Assembly (NCBI GenBank): GCA_016220095.1
Contig: JACRIJ010000102.1
Span: 233-64,232, forward strand
Origin: Planctomycetota bacterium
GTDB taxonomy: Bacteria > Planctomycetota > MHYJ01 > JACQXL01 > JACRIJ01
Reading direction: 5' to 3'
Length of the DNA stretch: 64,000 nt
Positions 25,097 through 63,000 of the stretch are shown here, in pieces. Below the pieces are notes generated by a model, which saw nothing but the letters and a program-made list of their open reading frames with translations, searched no databases and had not been told where the DNA came from. Made by a program: the position numbers and the translations under genes. Every line of letters begins with the position of its first letter. The first letter of the stretch is position 1.

Positions 25097-25828
25097 TCAA
25101 TAGTTCTTCCGATTAATTGCCTCTTTCATCTCCCTTACAGCCCTTTCAAGGCCGGTTAAAACGGCCCTTGAAATTATGCTATGGCCTATATTAAGTTCTT
25201 CTATTTCCATTATTTTTGTAACCGGACCTACATTGCGGTAATTCAGGCCGTGACCTGCGGCCACGCCGAGGCGCACATTACGCGCCATCATCGCGGCTTC
25301 GGCAAGTTTATGCAATTCAACGCGGACATCTTCCGCGTTTTTCGCATTGGCATACCTGCCCGTATGAATTTCCACCATATCGGCCCTGACGAGTTTTGCC
25401 GCCTGTATTTGGTCCCTTTCAGGGTCAACGAAAATACTGACGACAATGCCGTTTTGGTGGAATACAGGCACAATCTTCTGCAATTTTTCCTTGAACTGTA
25501 CCGCATCCAGGCCGCCTTCGGTGGTAAGTTCTTCGCGCTTCTCAGGAACAAGGGTGACCTGATGGGGCTTTGATTTCAATGCTATGTCTATTATCTCATC
25601 CGCCAGGCCCATTTCAAGGTTCAGCCGTGTGGAAACGGTTTCCTTAAGGACGTAGACGTCGCGGTCCTGTATATGCCTGCGGTCTTCCCTCAAGTGGCAG
25701 ACTATGCTGTCCGCGCCGGCAAGTTCTACAATGACTGCCGCGGCTGCAGGATCGGGTTCAAAACCCTTGCGCGCCTGCCTGACTGTGGCTATATGGTCTA
25801 TGTTTACACCCAATTTAATAATCGTCAT
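25097..25828 (-). CDS. pdxJ: pyridoxine 5'-phosphate synthase
   Basis: [25 protein letters not shown] and the HTG / GHGL motifs fit PdxJ. The start is moved to the ATG at 25828 (MTIIKLGVN). The 31 codons upstream in the listed ORF lack PdxJ-like sequence. Confidence 0.9.
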
Positions 25829-26134
25829 AAGAACAGGAATATTAGCCGAAAACCCGATATTAGTCAAGAAAAAACGGGTAATTACTGCCTCAGTGAAGGT
25901 GGGGCTATATGCTAAAGACAACCGAAACTTTGACTGTTTGTTTTTTTTAATCTTTCACCCCTTCGGGGTATGAAATTTTTATTTCTTGTTTAGCATAAAT
26001 GAGGAATGTCAACCCTGAAAGGATGGCAGATTTGAATCGTCACTGCCTGCCGCAGTCCTGATTAAATGTTATATTGAGTGAAAAATTGAGAATGCAAAAC
26101 TATCAGTTTAATCTGTTGTTAAAAACGAATTTAT

Positions 26135-26163
26135 TTGACTTTTTTGGTAAAACCATATATATT
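26135..26163 (+). promoter_or_regulatory. sigma70-type promoter (TTGACT - 17 nt - TATATT) upstream of the acsD-like gene
   Basis: ttgact at 26135-26140 and tatatt at 26158-26163. RBS AGGAG and the ATG at 26224 follow. Confidence 0.45.
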
Positions 26164-26223
26164 TTTCATCTTACCGTGCCTTATCAAGAAAAACGAAATA
26201 TTTCACAAAAAAGGAGCCAAGCT

Positions 26224-27189
26224 ATGCCAGTACAAAAAGTTTTAGAAAAATGGTCTATACCGGTAAATGAAGTAACCATAGGCGCTACCAAAGAACAAGG
26301 CGGTACGCGTTCAAGGGCAATCAAGATAGGCGGCGAGGACTGCCTGCCTTTCATGTCCGATGAAGGCAAAATACCCAATCCGCCGGTTATCGCCATGGAA
26401 GTCACTGACATGAAACCCGAGAACTGGCCCGCGCCGCTTGAGGCAATCTACAAAGATGTCTGGAACGACCCAGTCAAATGGGCGCAGAGATGCGAAAAGG
26501 AATTCGGCGCGGACATCATATTGCTTAAATTGTCGTCATGCCATCCGGACAATAAAAACACTTCGCCCGCGGATGCCGCGGCTATCGTAAAGGCCATCAA
26601 GCAGAGCGTCTCCCTGCCGCTCATCGTATGGGGCAGTGAGGTTCCTGAAAAAGATAACCTCGTAATGCCGGAAGTCAGCCAGGTATTGAAAGGCGAAAAA
26701 GCAATCCTCGGCATAGCCGAACAGGACAACTATAAAACACTCACCGGCACCTGCATCGCGGACGGCCATAACATACTCACAATGGCGCCGCTTGACGTAA
26801 ACATCGGCAAACAGGTAAATATACTCGTCACCGATATGGGCATGTCAGCTGAAAATATCGTACAGTGGCAGACCACAGGCGCGCTGGGATACGGTTTTGA
26901 ATACTGCTATTCCGCGCAGGAACGCATAAGACTGGCAGGCCTCGGCGGCGATAAGCTCCTCGCCATTCCCCTGCTGGCAACCTGCGGCTGGGAATCGTGG
27001 AAGGCCAAAGAAGCCAAATCCCCTGAAGCGGAATTCCCCCACTGGGGCCCTGCTAAGGAAAGAGGCATTGCGTGGGAATTCTCCACAGCAACAGGCATGC
27101 TCTTGTCCGGCGCGAACATCGTCTCACTCCTGCATCCCGAATCGGTAAAGCTCGTCAGAAGATTCATTAATACCATGCTGGCGAAATAG
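26224..27189 (+). CDS. acsD: CO dehydrogenase/acetyl-CoA synthase delta subunit-like protein (corrinoid Fe-S protein small subunit, AcsD/CdhD family)
   Basis: From MPVQKVLEKW (RBS aaaggag upstream), the sequence GATKEQGGTRSRAIKIGGE..LPF, PVIAMEV.D, WAQRCEKEFGADIILLKL, AEQDNYKTLTG, PLDVNIGKQVNIL, GYGFEY and ERIRLAGL runs closely parallel to Moorella AcsD as I recall it. The listed upstream extension from 26074 is AT-rich and contains the promoter-like motif. Confidence 0.75.
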   Translation: MPVQKVLEKWSIPVNEVTIGATKEQGGTRSRAIKIGGEDCLPFMSDEGKIPNPPVIAMEVTDMKPENWPAPLEAIYKDVWNDPVKWAQRCEKEFGADIILLKLSSCHPDNKNTSPADAAAIVKAIKQSVSLPLIVWGSEVPEKDNLVMPEVSQVLKGEKAILGIAEQDNYKTLTGTCIADGHNILTMAPLDVNIGKQVNILVTDMGMSAENIVQWQTTGALGYGFEYCYSAQERIRLAGLGGDKLLAIPLLATCGWESWKAKEAKSPEAEFPHWGPAKERGIAWEFSTATGMLLSGANIVSLLHPESVKLVRRFINTMLAK

Positions 27190-57893: not shown

Positions 57894-59216
57894 CTACTTT
57901 TTCTTTTTCGGATCTGCCGCGGCCACATTTGCCTTGAACACTTCAATGAATTCCGATGTAACGCTTTCCCATTCCTTACCGAAAATCATCTGAAGTATCT
58001 GATTTATAACCAGCGAAGGGTCGTCAAGATTCACGTAAGTGCCGCCGCCCGCGGTTGCTATCCTGGAAAAGACCCCTTGCACAACCGCCCTCTCATTCTG
58101 GGAAAAAGTCTGGATTGTGCTTGTGATAACCTCTTTAAGCTGAACTGGTTTTTTCTCTTTTTCGCCGGTGGCAACTTTTTTCTTGGGATTTTTTCTATCC
58201 TGCGGAGGAGGCGGAGGCGGTACTAACGTTCCTTTATAAGCGTCCTCGGCATTCTTTACCGTCCTGTCAACGTCGCCCGTATGCGGCGGCGCGTCTCCCA
58301 TTATGACGATTAATTTCCATGTCTCTTCGCGCCACTCAAGCAAGGGGTCAAAAAGCGCCGTCTCGTATGCCTTATCCACCCCCTCTTCCCAGTCGCCGCC
58401 GCCCGTGGCGCCAAGCTGTTTATTCACGGCCTCCTGTATGACTTTCAAATCCGAATTGAACGGCAAAGCCACCCAGGAAGCGTCATTGTAACAGACAAAT
58501 CCTATTTTGGAAGAAGGGGATATTGAAATAATGATATTTACCAGGAATGAAACCTGTTCCTGCACCGCGGCGACGCACGGCCCCATACTACCGGTTATAT
58601 CCACACACAACACGAGGTCAAGCCCGTTCTTATTCAATTTTTCAAGGCGCGCGACAGTAGTCCCGCCCCTGATACCGCCGCTCTCAACACCGCCATTGGC
58701 AGGGTCTTCGGCAGCCTGTCCCTTGGCCACCATTTTATAAACTGTCGCATGGTCAGGCAGGGAGGCCTTATTCTTAGTAAACCAATCCTCCCATTTTTTC
58801 TTTTTGCCCCCGAGTTTTTTTGCGCCTGTAAGCAATTCAAGCGCTTCGGAGGCCTTATCGGACAAAAATGGCTGTTTCCTGTCGTCCAGAAAAGTTATAA
58901 GCGCTTCAACAACCTGCGCACTTTTTATCTTATCCACGCCTGCAGAATCTAATTTTAACACGGATGCCACTGCGTATATCCTGAGATTCTCATTAGTGCT
59001 CTTAATGGAATCCAGAAGAGCCGCTTCATAAATATCATACGACTTCTGATTGCGCAATTCCATCATGGCAAAAACCTTGATGACCCAGTTGCTGTTCGTT
59101 AAATACGCAGTAACAAGCTGGTCGGTTTTTTCGTCGGCATGAACGCTCGATAATTGGCCGAAAATTGCCGCCCATAAAAAAACAATGCATACTGTTACCA
59201 TGTGTTTTTTAGCCAT
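57894..59216 (-). CDS. secreted HEAT-repeat protein fused to a von Willebrand factor A (vWA) domain
   Basis: 440-aa ORF with a signal peptide (VTVCIVFLWAAIFGQLSSVHA). HEAT-like N-terminal repeats include NENLRIYAVASVLKLD and VVEALITFLDD. The vWA domain has the MIDAS-type motif LVLCVDITGSMGP and later IVIMGDAPPH. A PPPPPQ linker and a C-terminal helical region follow. Confidence 0.8.
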   Translation of the reverse strand: MAKKHMVTVCIVFLWAAIFGQLSSVHADEKTDQLVTAYLTNSNWVIKVFAMMELRNQKSYDIYEAALLDSIKSTNENLRIYAVASVLKLDSAGVDKIKSAQVVEALITFLDDRKQPFLSDKASEALELLTGAKKLGGKKKKWEDWFTKNKASLPDHATVYKMVAKGQAAEDPANGGVESGGIRGGTTVARLEKLNKNGLDLVLCVDITGSMGPCVAAVQEQVSFLVNIIISISPSSKIGFVCYNDASWVALPFNSDLKVIQEAVNKQLGATGGGDWEEGVDKAYETALFDPLLEWREETWKLIVIMGDAPPHTGDVDRTVKNAEDAYKGTLVPPPPPPQDRKNPKKKVATGEKEKKPVQLKEVITSTIQTFSQNERAVVQGVFSRIATAGGGTYVNLDDPSLVINQILQMIFGKEWESVTSEFIEVFKANVAAADPKKKK

Positions 59217-59331
59217 AAAATTACTCCCCCAAAATACGAAATAAAAGTTCTGAACTTAACACCAGACCTGCAGTATAACACTACAACTTTAACTGAAATG
59301 TTTCAAGTTTAATTTATTATAAAAGGTAAGA

Positions 59332-59458
59332 CCTCAGTGAAGGCGGGTTTTCAAGTTCCCACGCGGTATTTTGTAGGGACAGAATAATATTCTGTCCTTA
59401 CCGTAATCATTGGGCATTTTGATGTTTATGTTGTTTTCTCAACCCACCTTCACTGAGG
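59332..59458 (-). repeat. inverted-repeat element A (18-nt stems enclosing 91 nt), candidate structured RNA or recombination/processing site
   Basis: cctcagtgaaggcgggtt (59332-59349) pairs with aacccaccttcactgagg (59441-59458), 17/18 complementary. The one mismatch is a G-U pair only on the minus-strand transcript. The interior holds the palindrome ggacagaat-aat-attctgtcc. The element is preceded and followed by the motif tataaaaggta. Confidence 0.8.
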
Positions 59459-59478
59459 CCGTACTATAAAAGGTACCG

Positions 59479-59627
59479 CCTCAGTCGAGGTGGGTTTTTG
59501 CTGGTTTTTCGATAACGCTGAACACGGACGATACACCCCTGGTTCCCCTCTTTTTAGAGGGGACATATACGAATTTCCCCTCTATTAAGAGGGGGTAGGG
59601 GTGTGTTAAGCGTAACCTCGACTGAGG
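59479..59627 (-). repeat. inverted-repeat element B (13-nt stems enclosing ~123 nt with an internal 8-bp stem and two cccctc/gagggg hairpins)
   Basis: cctcagtcgaggt (59479-59491) pairs with acctcgactgagg (59615-59627). Internally, acacccct pairs with aggggtgt around the hairpins cccctc-ttttta-gagggg and cccctc-tattaa-gagggg. Confidence 0.8.
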
Positions 59628-59693
59628 CCTTACTATAAAAGGTAAGTCATCAGATGTGAGAATGGGTATTACGAAATAAGTGCAAAACATCAA

Positions 59694-59918
59694 CTACCGT
59701 ATGCCGCTGTCCATCCAACCTACAAGGCGGTTGTTATGAAAAAAATAACTCTCTTTGCCCGCTGTGCCCGCGCTGACATATTCCCACCTTTCTACCGTAC
59801 CGGCAAAACTGCCACTTTTCTTTACCTCCTTCGCCGCAGGCTTCCCGCGCAAAGCAAGTATATCGTCCGGACTAAAAGGCGGACATGCGAGTTTTTTAGT
59901 TTTTTCTTTTAGCATCAC
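59694..59918 (-). CDS. small hypothetical protein (74 aa), possibly SmpA/OmlA (BamE)-like fold
   Basis: The ORF lies directly downstream of the giant gene. The pattern SPDDILALRGKP....W.Y......FFHNNRLVGW resembles BamE-like small proteins, but no signal peptide is evident. Confidence 0.4.
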   Translation of the reverse strand: MMLKEKTKKLACPPFSPDDILALRGKPAAKEVKKSGSFAGTVERWEYVSAGTAGKESYFFHNNRLVGWMDSGIR

Positions 59919-60031
59919 AATTGAACCTTACAAAAATTACAATAAATACATAACTCTAAACAAACCATAAACTCAAAATACAAATTTCCAAACCCGTCGT
60001 GCGTCGTGTTTTGAAATTTAGAGTTTCGTAT

Positions 60032-63000
60032 TTAGTATTTGTTTAGAGTTTCGGATTTCGAATTTAGAGTTTTCAATAGCATTCCTATAAGAATAACTGT
60101 TGCTAACATAGTATATATATAGTTTGCGTTGGAATTGCCTGTCTTTGTTATAAAGCATCCGCCGCCGCCTTTGCCGCCCCCTCCGCTCTCTACCGCGCCC
60201 GCGCCTCCGGATAACGTTGGATCTCCTATTACTGCTTCTTCCCCTGTCAACGGCACCCCCGATACCTGCAGTATCTTTCCGGAATCCCTGCCTCTGACCG
60301 TTATGTCTATGTTCGTGTCAACCGCCACCCAGAATGTGTCCCCGTCTTTAGCATTGCCTGAAAAATTGTACACCAATATCCAATCCGTGCTCCCGCTCGC
60401 CGCTATAGTTTCTAACGGCGTATTGAACGTTATCACGCCATTGTCTTCCGAATAATGGTAATTGTACAGACCTACCGCCTCTTCTCCATAATCGTACGCG
60501 CCATTCTTGTTGACGTCTCTTATCATCTTCACGCCACCCGGTAATATCGCACTCTTCTCGTTGCCCGTACCCCCGCTGTGTACGTATACCTTCTCTATCT
60601 CAAGGGCCTCTACACTGCTTGCCTCTAAATTCATGCTCAACATCGCTACATTGCCCTGATTGTTCAATACGGTCTTTTTCAATTTGTCCTTATTTGCTCC
60701 TAATACCGTAAGAGTGCCTACACTGCTTATCACCTTGGCCTTGCCTTGTATCGGAAATTCGCCCGTAACCACTATCGGCTGATGCGTGGCTTCGTCCGTG
60801 CCCGTTATGTCGTACTTCGTACTTACCTCGGCGCCGAATGTGCTCCCGTCAAACGCGTTGCCATTCATATTGTACACTACTATAAGATTTATATCTGAAT
60901 TTGCCGGCAACATGTATTCCAACCCGTCAAATTCCACGTTTCCATTGTCCGCGTTATAATTTTCACCTCCTGCTAATTCGCTATCCGGCCCACCAATCTT
61001 TCCGTTTTCGTCAGCATCTATATATAACCTGATTCCATTGTCTTCTAAATCCGCGGCTTCATTGCCGTATCCCGTACCGGTTATCTTCAGGGAATTCATG
61101 TTTATATCTACTGAACTCGTAGTCAGATTCAATTGCAGCATTACGATTCCTTTACCACTGCGGCTCTCGGTCGTAGACATGGGATTACGCTCACCTTCGG
61201 ATACGGTTATTACGCCCGGCACGACTTTTACGTCCTGCTGTGCATCTATCCAGCTATTGTCAGGGCTCTCATATACCGTTACGGTAGAAACACCAAACTG
61301 CGCATCCGTATAATAGAACGACAACCGGCTCGTATTAGCCTGCATAACTATAATATTCACCATCCACGGACCGTCCTGCTTAACGGCGAATTTGCCGTCC
61401 GGCGAACTGCTCGCCAACATCAGCATCGTGCTTGCCGTAAGTACGGATTCGTTTTGATACGCGTCCTGCGACATTACGGTCATCGTGTCAGTAACCGTGC
61501 CTACGCCTATTGCCTGCTCCTGCGAAATGAATTTCAATTGCGCCACGGGCCCCGGGACGATCGTCACGAACTGTGTAATATCTGTCCAGCCCTTGTCAGG
61601 CGCCTCCGCAAAGCTCATTGTATATTGACCAGTCTTTGTATCGGAATAGTAAAAACTTATAGAATCGTTTCCTGCAGGTATTGTAATCGCAGTCATATTG
61701 AACGGCCCCGCGGTTGTCTCTGCAAAACCGCCTGCTATAGAGGTCGTTGTTACTGAAATAGACGTATTTTCTGGGACTGCGAGCGCAAAGCCCTTCTTAT
61801 GCCGGGTCTGCAGAATTATCGCATCCGATACACTGCCTGCGGCTATCTGCTGTTGTGTTGTAGTAACTGCGAGCGTGCTTATTATCCACGGATAGACTGT
61901 TACAGTTTGAGAGGCATCGGTCCAGTTGCGGGACGGGCTTTCACTTACTGCTATCGTCCAACTGCCGATTTCTTCATCATAGTAATAAAAGCTTATGAAA
62001 CTCGTATTAGCCGACATTGTTACGTACGCAGAGTCAAACGGCGCTATATTGTCAGTGCCAAATGAACCGGTTGTTGACGTAGTTGACAGATTAAGCTGAG
62101 TATCTTCTGTAGTATTGGATACGTTATTGAATTCGTCATAGGTCTGGATTGTCATAACGGCTGAGGGCAGGTATTCGCCCATGTTCTGCGCAGACGTTAC
62201 GAATGCCATTTTCGCAACAGGCGCGGGATTGACGATTTCGTCCTGAAAGGCGTCCAGCCAGCCTGCCTCAGGCGCTTCACGCGCCGAGATTGTAACAAGG
62301 CCTGCGAGCGTATCGCTATAGTAGAAATCAGCCGAAGAATTTCCGGCAGTCAGGGTGACCAGAGTGGCAGACCACGGCCCTTCGGAACTCAGGCCGAATG
62401 CGCCTGCCGATGATGTGCTAATGAATTCGATGCTCGTATCAACCTCTGCCGGGCTGGGATTCTCAAACTGGTCTCTTGTCTGTATGGTAATTACATCCGA
62501 GGCAACACCTGCAATAAGAGTTTGCGGGCTGGTAATGAATACTATCTGCGAGCTAACTGCCGGATTGATGGTGATATCCTGGGCGCCGTCCTGCCAATTA
62601 AGACCTGTGATTTCGTGCATAGTAAGCGTATGGGTACCCATCAGGGTATCGCGATAGAAGAAGGTGGTATTATTGGTGCCGGTGTAAACTATAATGCTCG
62701 ATAGGTCCCACGGGCCGGCATCGGCCAAACCAAACGTGCCTGCTGACGACGTAGAGCTCAAAGTAACTTCCACGTACTGGGAGGCGTTGGAAATATTGCC
62801 ATAGGCATCGGTAGTCTGGGCAATCATAGCTGATGAAGATTCGCCGGCTATAATTGTTTGCGCGACAGAGGTGAAAGAGACCTTAGCGACAGGGCCTGCG
62901 AGCACGGTTTGCGCCTGGACTGCGTCCGACCAGTTAAGGTTTGGGAATTCAGAGCAGGTGATTTGCGGCGCACCGGCAAGGGTATCCTGATAATAGAACG

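Follow-up and report, generated by a model that had tools for sequence, protein, structure and literature searches.

The locus studied here raises the question of what fills an unusually wide gap between two genes that are a close pair in a relative. In the 64-kb window (the whole stretch of 64,000 nucleotides that was analysed), 477 nt separate a gene for a 74-aa protein from a gene for a VWA-domain protein. A sequence-only reading of this gap had proposed a novel structured RNA or a recombination element and, as an alternative, a small non-autonomous mobile element with variable cargo. The last proposal turned out to describe the region. With a probability of about 93%, the two units in the gap, A and B, are non-autonomous elements (MITEs) derived from a single-transposase, ISBst12-like IS66 insertion sequence and inserted successively in one 8-bp target.

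The gene downstream of the gap encodes a 440-aa VWA-domain protein (57894–59216, minus strand; Pfam VWA/VWA_4). Its closest named homologue is from a 'Planctomycetes bacterium' MAG, and orthologues are present at 91% (P0004) and 53% identity (P0005 and P0006). The upstream gene is located at 59694–59918 on the minus strand. Its 74-aa product has no Pfam or NCBIfam match and the protein itself is not on record elsewhere. A 74-aa ORF in contig L126, which encodes a VWA protein of 53% identity, is 51% identical to it (E 6e-26). Judged by this comparison, the ORF in the window is a real, conserved gene. In L126 only 31 nt, without any element, separate its 74-aa ORF (L126:93–317) from the VWA gene downstream of it. 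Thus, the tight gene pair is ancestral and the 477-nt gap of the window is an expansion. The two genes probably formed an ancestral two-gene operon.

The motif TATAAAAGGTA occurs three times in the gap, with exact copies at 59318, 59465 and 59634, and the two GC-rich inverted-repeat units lie between the copies, as had been described. The 64 kb contain no other copy, even at one mismatch. The count of this motif alone is not improbable, as 19 of 100 shuffled sequences give at least three matches at one mismatch. The arm core CCTCAGT(GA/CG)AGG is found at 59332 (+), 59447 (−), 59479 (+) and 59616 (−), with an extra solo copy at 25888 (+). A longer arm pattern of 16 nt, CCTCAGTNNAGGNGGG, has four matches in the window, a number reached by none of 100 shuffles. 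A repeat search extends the arms to 24 nt and pairs 59326–59349 with 59441–59464 at 88% complementarity. The same search also pairs the right arm of A (59441–59464) with the left arm of B (59473–59496); the right arm of B spans 59610–59633. All arms begin with GTA(A/C) and end with (G/T)TAC, and only the 8 bp TATAAAAG separate them. Since the repeat boundary lies at GTA, the supposed linker of the sequence-only reading is composed of the 8-bp TATAAAAG and the GTA tip of the terminal repeat.

This boundary defines a regular array. The first copy of the target-site duplication TATAAAAG (59318–59325) is an exact 8-mer directly outside the GTA tip of the left repeat of A. MITE A comprises 139 bp (59326–59464), with the left repeat GTAAGACCTCAGTGAAGGCGGGTT at 59326–59349, the right repeat at 59441–59464 and a palindrome at 59373–59401. 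The second copy of TATAAAAG (59465–59472) is common to A and B. MITE B comprises 161 bp (59473–59633), with the left repeat GTACCGCCTCAGTCGAGGTGGGTT at 59473–59496, the right repeat at 59610–59633 and nested hairpins at 59533–59604. It is followed by the third copy of TATAAAAG (59634–59641), which is again an exact 8-mer. The two ends of A are identical at 21 of 24 positions and those of B at 17 of 24, and both elements are flanked by perfect 8-bp repeats. The interior structures described earlier were found as well. The palindrome of A is formed by 59373–59386 and 59388–59401, and B contains the stem ACACCCCT/AGGGGTGT (59533/59597) and two CCCCTC/GAGGGG hairpins. The interiors of A and B are unrelated to each other. 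Both elements are short and non-coding; the sole overlapping ORF (59481–59693, 70 aa) has no Pfam match.

Directly after the third TATAAAAG, where a further repeat would start, a degenerate arm beginning with GTAAGTCATCAG matches the arm tip at 10 of 12 positions. Among the 128,000 12-mers of the window, 18 equal this match. The relic, GTAAGTCATCAGATGTGAGAATGGGTATTAC, is placed at 59642–59672, with its extent and right boundary inferred, and is probably the remnant of an older third element. Elsewhere in the window the family is represented only by the solo arm, a solo or degenerate repeat-like arm TTACTGCCTCAGTGAAGGTGGGGC at 25882–25905 (plus strand) that matches the arm motif. It has no partner arm in the window and no obvious duplication. 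This arm is located between pdxJ (25097–25921, minus strand) and a CdhD-like gene (26074–27189, plus strand).

Inspection of JGI metagenomes with the arm pattern GTAMNNCCTCAGTSRAGGYGGG yielded at least 120 loci, mostly from soil and peat samples. When these matches are aligned on the arm motif, the conserved part begins precisely at GTAA, and the sequences outside it bear no relation to each other. In most of the metagenome copies listed, an imperfect inverted arm that ends with TTAC or GTAC follows 70–250 nt downstream. Direct repeats of 8 bp are present outside both arms and are specific to each locus (ACCTCCGC, AAACTCCA, GCGCAAAA, AATTCCAG and TTCGGAAG; further AATTGAGA, ATCACCAT, TCGTCCGG, GGAAAACT and GTCGGAAT). 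In a strict test, an inverted arm had to be present and the flanking 8-mer had to recur directly after it with at most one mismatch. Among the matches listed, 43 of 99 non-redundant instances passed, three of them being the window's own elements, and 40 of the 43 are 108–243 bp long. A control compared the true flanking 8-mer, found again downstream in 46 of 96 loci, with 8-mers taken 9–30 nt further out, found again in 10–14 of 96. This layout of arms and variable 8-bp duplications is textbook MITE anatomy. The arms are therefore, in substance, members of a common MITE family, an outcome that had been named beforehand as speaking against a novel element.

Members of the family share only the terminal repeats, and their interiors are unrelated. 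The first 33 interior bases of A are 91% identical to one metagenomic locus (L021). Among the matches listed, the commonest metagenomic member is 133 bp long (within L004–L123; for example L010:140–273, L037 and L046). Between its ends lies a long, almost perfect hairpin headed by GTAG (GTAGGGCGCGTCACTCCGTGCGCGCC ... GGCGCGCACGGAGTGACGCGCCCTAC), which resembles REP/REPIN elements. Unrelated hairpins are found in other members; a single type of end thus encloses several kinds of cargo. In the GTDB species genomes, a representative set that does not include the window's own genome, a stricter pattern (GTANNNCCTCAGTNNAGGNGGGTT) matched just a pair of solo arms from a single Ca. Acidoferrum MAG. 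The CTGCC form of the solo arm at 25882–25905 is also present in these two arms (L002 and L003). Viral contigs gave no match to the arm motif and thus no link to phages.

In two metagenomic loci, L036 and L101, the same ends bound elements of 1843–1845 bp with perfect 8-bp duplications (TCGTCCTG and TCGGTTTA). The transposase of L101 is also present in a third locus, L078, where the two flanks show no match. The ends of these full-length elements are GTAATCCCTCAGTGAAGGCGGG and GTAA(C/T)(C/G)CCTCAGTGACGGCGG. They encode a DUF6788 ORF and a 443-aa protein, which is assigned to Pfam DDE_Tnp_IS66 (PF03050) at 1.8e-37, together with zf-IS66, and to NCBIfam NF033517 'IS66 family transposase' with 239.7 bits (cut-off 180). 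The DUF6788 ORF lies upstream of the transposase and contains a CxxC...CxxC-like motif (L078:429–785; likewise in L101 and L036). The TnpA and TnpB accessory genes of classical IS66 are absent from these elements. A tblastn search located the transposase in exactly L036, L101 and L078 among the fetched loci, and no copy was found in the 64-kb window. No full-length parent with the ends of the window's subfamily (GGGTT) is present among the fetched loci.

The left repeat of A matches the left end of the full-length element in L078 at 20 of 24 positions. Together with the anatomy of the family and the transposase of the parent, this match identifies A and B as IS66-family (ISBst12-like) MITEs. 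Published features of IS66 elements agree. Their ends of 20–30 bp start with GTAAGCG and are flanked by 8-bp direct repeats (PMC11946415), IS66 elements of Paracoccus give 8-bp repeats (PMC3281130), and ISDge4 of the ISBst12 group has the ends GTAACTGCTCAGCA, an 8-bp repeat and a 449-aa transposase (PMC12898284). All four arms at the A/B locus start with GTAA or GTAC, as expected for IS66 terminal repeats (PMC11946415), and the 8-bp TATAAAAG duplications of A and B have the length reported for the family (PMC11946415, PMC3281130, PMC12898284). In the literature, no paper was found that names an IS66-derived MITE family of the A/B type.

In the proposed mechanism, an IS66-family DDE transposase would be supplied in trans from a full-length copy outside the window and would bind both ends of an element. 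It would insert the element at a staggered 8-bp cut, and repair would duplicate the target, here TATAAAAG. As different members of the family, A and B would have entered the same 8-bp target successively, so that three copies of the duplication now exist; the degenerate third arm points to a still earlier insertion at this site. The insertions would have expanded the ancestrally short spacer between the 74-aa and VWA genes. By analogy with the family, A and B themselves were presumably mobile at this locus.

How one target came to be used repeatedly is less obvious. Among all fetched loci, a junction of repeat, 8 bp and repeat is found only in the window. Three identical copies of TATAAAAG around two unrelated interiors indicate that A and B were inserted independently into these 8 bp and did not arise by duplication. 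A possible cause is provided by the sequence context of the target. Of 95 loci, 49 have C at position −22 from the repeat tip (p 6e-8) and 51 have A at −15 (p 3e-8); A is also favoured at −21/−20 and at −14. The bias is mirrored on the opposite flank, i.e. it is dyad-symmetric across the approximately 95 non-redundant loci. To our knowledge, a target-context preference of this kind has not been described for IS66 elements. In the window, the flank bases at 59304–59312 fit the preferred context, with CAA at 59304–59306 (−22 to −20) and AA at 59311–59312 (−15/−14). The flank on the VWA side remains constant after each insertion and could steer the next element into the copy of the duplication that is nearest to this flank. 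This may explain the re-use of the same 8 bp. Before A and B were inserted, the site would have read ...TTTATTATAAAAGGTAAGTCATCAG....

The degenerate third arm and the logic of the constant flank suggest that the relic was inserted before B and B before A, which makes A, the element next to the flank, the youngest. The identity of the ends (21 of 24 in A, 17 of 24 in B) agrees with this order.

A relative bears on the age of the insertions. Contig L125, which encodes the VWA protein of 91% identity, begins inside an orthologous arm (CTTGAAACCCACCCTTTACTGACCGGTTAC) that lies 97 nt before the start codon. An alignment of arm and spacer to the window gives 79% identity, and the arm shows about the same divergence as the spacer around it. 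Thus, at least the flank-proximal element is shared by descent. The exact VWA protein is present on one other contig, L001, which breaks inside arm A, and the contig with the AcrB neighbour (L124) stops short of the locus. That the short-read contigs L001 and L125 both break inside an arm is attributed to repeats and hairpins, which disrupt assemblies. An empty site in a close relative was not recovered from the three contigs L001, L124 and L125.

A separate observation concerns a 10-nt exact direct repeat, TACGAAATAA, which brackets the entire MITE block (59235–59244 and 59670–59679). In 50 of 5000 shuffles a word of equal length is shared. Without the MITE block and one copy of TACGAAATAA, the 74-aa and VWA genes would be about 42 nt apart, a distance close to the 31 nt of L126. 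No inverted ends are present at these boundaries.

The reading as RNA was founded on substitutions in the arms that appeared to be compensatory. Within each element the observation is correct, as A has GA at both ends and B has CG at both ends, so that both variable positions pair within each unit. Furthermore, the single mismatch in the arms of A, C/A on the plus strand, is indeed a G-U pair on the minus strand, which is the strand of the genes. The matching changes are, however, not a rule of the family. In a sample of 35 metagenomic copies, in which the left arms were fixed by the search pattern and only the right arms were free to vary, positions 14–15 differ between the ends in 15 copies, without compensation, and all eight copies with GG at the left have GA at the right. 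Positions 7, 8 and 16 show a systematic mismatch between left and right ends, and the overall identity of the two ends is 15–19 of 24. These mismatches argue against family-wide selection for pairing. The simplest reading of the sequences is that A and B would descend from two sub-lineages, each with its own variant at both ends. It is therefore very improbable that A and B are transcribed structured RNAs of the gene strand (3' UTR or processing elements, or sRNAs) with stems kept by compensatory changes. The region does fold far better than shuffled sequences, but it does so on both strands (z = −10.4 on the minus and −11.4 on the plus strand), as any DNA palindrome would. The whole window has no match in Rfam 15 at the gathering score, and a permissive search of 59100–60050 (E up to 10) returned only miRNA-type hairpins with 13–28 bits, compared to cut-offs of 37–211. 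Nor would an RNA be expected to have family members with nothing in common except terminal repeats, conservation that halts exactly at the repeat tip beside locus-specific 8-bp duplications, or an orthologous arm in L125 that has drifted with its neighbouring spacer. The proposal of a novel structured RNA is not supported. The proposal of a recombination element with a conserved linker is not supported either, because the same arms are flanked elsewhere by different 8-bp duplications. In its most specific form it would make A and B excisable cassettes of an integron-like or Xer/pdif-like array, joined at a recombinase site (arm-TATAAAAG-arm) whose crossover core is the 8 bp. The junction 59441–59496 is in fact an imperfect palindrome of 24-8-24, and the differences between the arms sort with the unit and not across the junction, as in integron cassettes. 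Such an array is nevertheless exceedingly improbable. At each of the other loci a different 8-mer flanks a single element on either side, a hallmark of transposition, and the junction itself is absent from all other fetched loci. In addition, the autonomous relatives encode a DDE transposase instead of a tyrosine or serine recombinase, and the integron core GTTRRRY/RYYYAAC is absent from the sequence of the region.

Two further readings accept the MITEs as real and ask whether they acquired a role. The stacked hairpins might have been co-opted, as a terminator or insulator, to separate expression of the VWA gene from that of the upstream 74-aa gene, or they might carry a promoter context. The operon-like ancestral layout with its 31-nt spacer and the age of the insertion, which is common to a relative at 91% protein identity, are compatible with co-option. 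On the gene strand, moreover, CUUUUAUA comes after each hairpin. Yet this U-run lies 6–7 nt from the stem and is not adjacent to it, a consensus scan for promoters and terminators finds no terminator and nothing else convincing on the gene strand of the region, and the arm in L125 is not better conserved than its flank. Co-option appears unlikely. It is equally doubtful that a dyad-symmetric flank signature of about 50 bp drives tandem stacks of MITEs at a resident end and that the hairpin stack is kept here as an insulator of the VWA gene from the 74-aa gene. Solo arms were also considered as a promoter or operator motif, as suggested by a CAAG roughly 20 nt beyond the arm that resembles a −35 element on the opposite strand. 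This idea was dropped because the variable 8-bp duplications and the enrichment mirrored on both flanks correspond to a target preference.

The reading of A and B as MITEs has consequences for the annotation of the region, in which two IS66-family MITEs with an 8-bp target duplication should replace the candidate RNA or recombination site. At the ends of a transposon, the two arms of a palindromic repeat normally change in step, and a comparison of just two copies can make this look like RNA covariation. The MITE family is abundant in soil and peat metagenomes and has varied hairpin cargos. Its mirrored flank preference could inform the target choice of IS66-type transposases, the mechanism of which is poorly known.

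Among known systems, REP/REPIN elements are mobilised by RAYT transposases, produce no target duplication and have no 24-bp terminal repeats of the GTAA type. A and B resemble them as short GC-rich palindromic intergenic repeats, and many metagenomic members of the MITE family have an interior hairpin with a GTAG head (GTAGGGCGCGTCACTCCGTGCGCGCC). In contrast, A and B themselves lack both the GTAG head and the GTAGGGCGCGTCACTCCGTGCGCGCC hairpin. REP/REPIN elements are ruled out for A and B by the 8-bp target duplications and the GTAA/GTAC tips.

Another comparison is with the ISBst12 group of IS66, which includes ISBst12 itself and ISDge4 of Deinococcus geothermalis. The ends of ISDge4 (GTAACTGCTCAGCA) and those found here (GTAA(T)GCCTCAGTGA) both start with GTAA, and the target duplication of 8 bp is the same. 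The full-length relatives of about 1.84 kb have a single transposase of about 443 aa with the IS66 zinc finger and DDE domains. They differ from the group by the additional small DUF6788 ORF upstream of the transposase, and the elements of the window differ by their size (139 and 161 bp) and lack of coding capacity. Compared to classical IS66, the repeat beyond the tip departs from GTAAGCG.

Bacterial MITEs in general, of which Correia and similar elements are further examples, share with A and B a length of 100–250 bp, terminal repeats that match a resident IS family, a target-site duplication, an intergenic location, a strong tendency to form hairpins and a presumed need for a transposase in trans. 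One such element, MITEPsy1, was shown to transpose in Pseudomonas syringae (PMC3189936). The parent here is an IS66 element rather than IS5, IS630 or Tn3, and the A/B family stands out by the diversity of its interiors, in which several unrelated hairpin cargos are framed by one type of end. Furthermore, two different members, A and B, share one target duplication in tandem. A and B are thus a known kind of element, with the tandem re-use of one target and the family-wide flank preference as modest curiosities.
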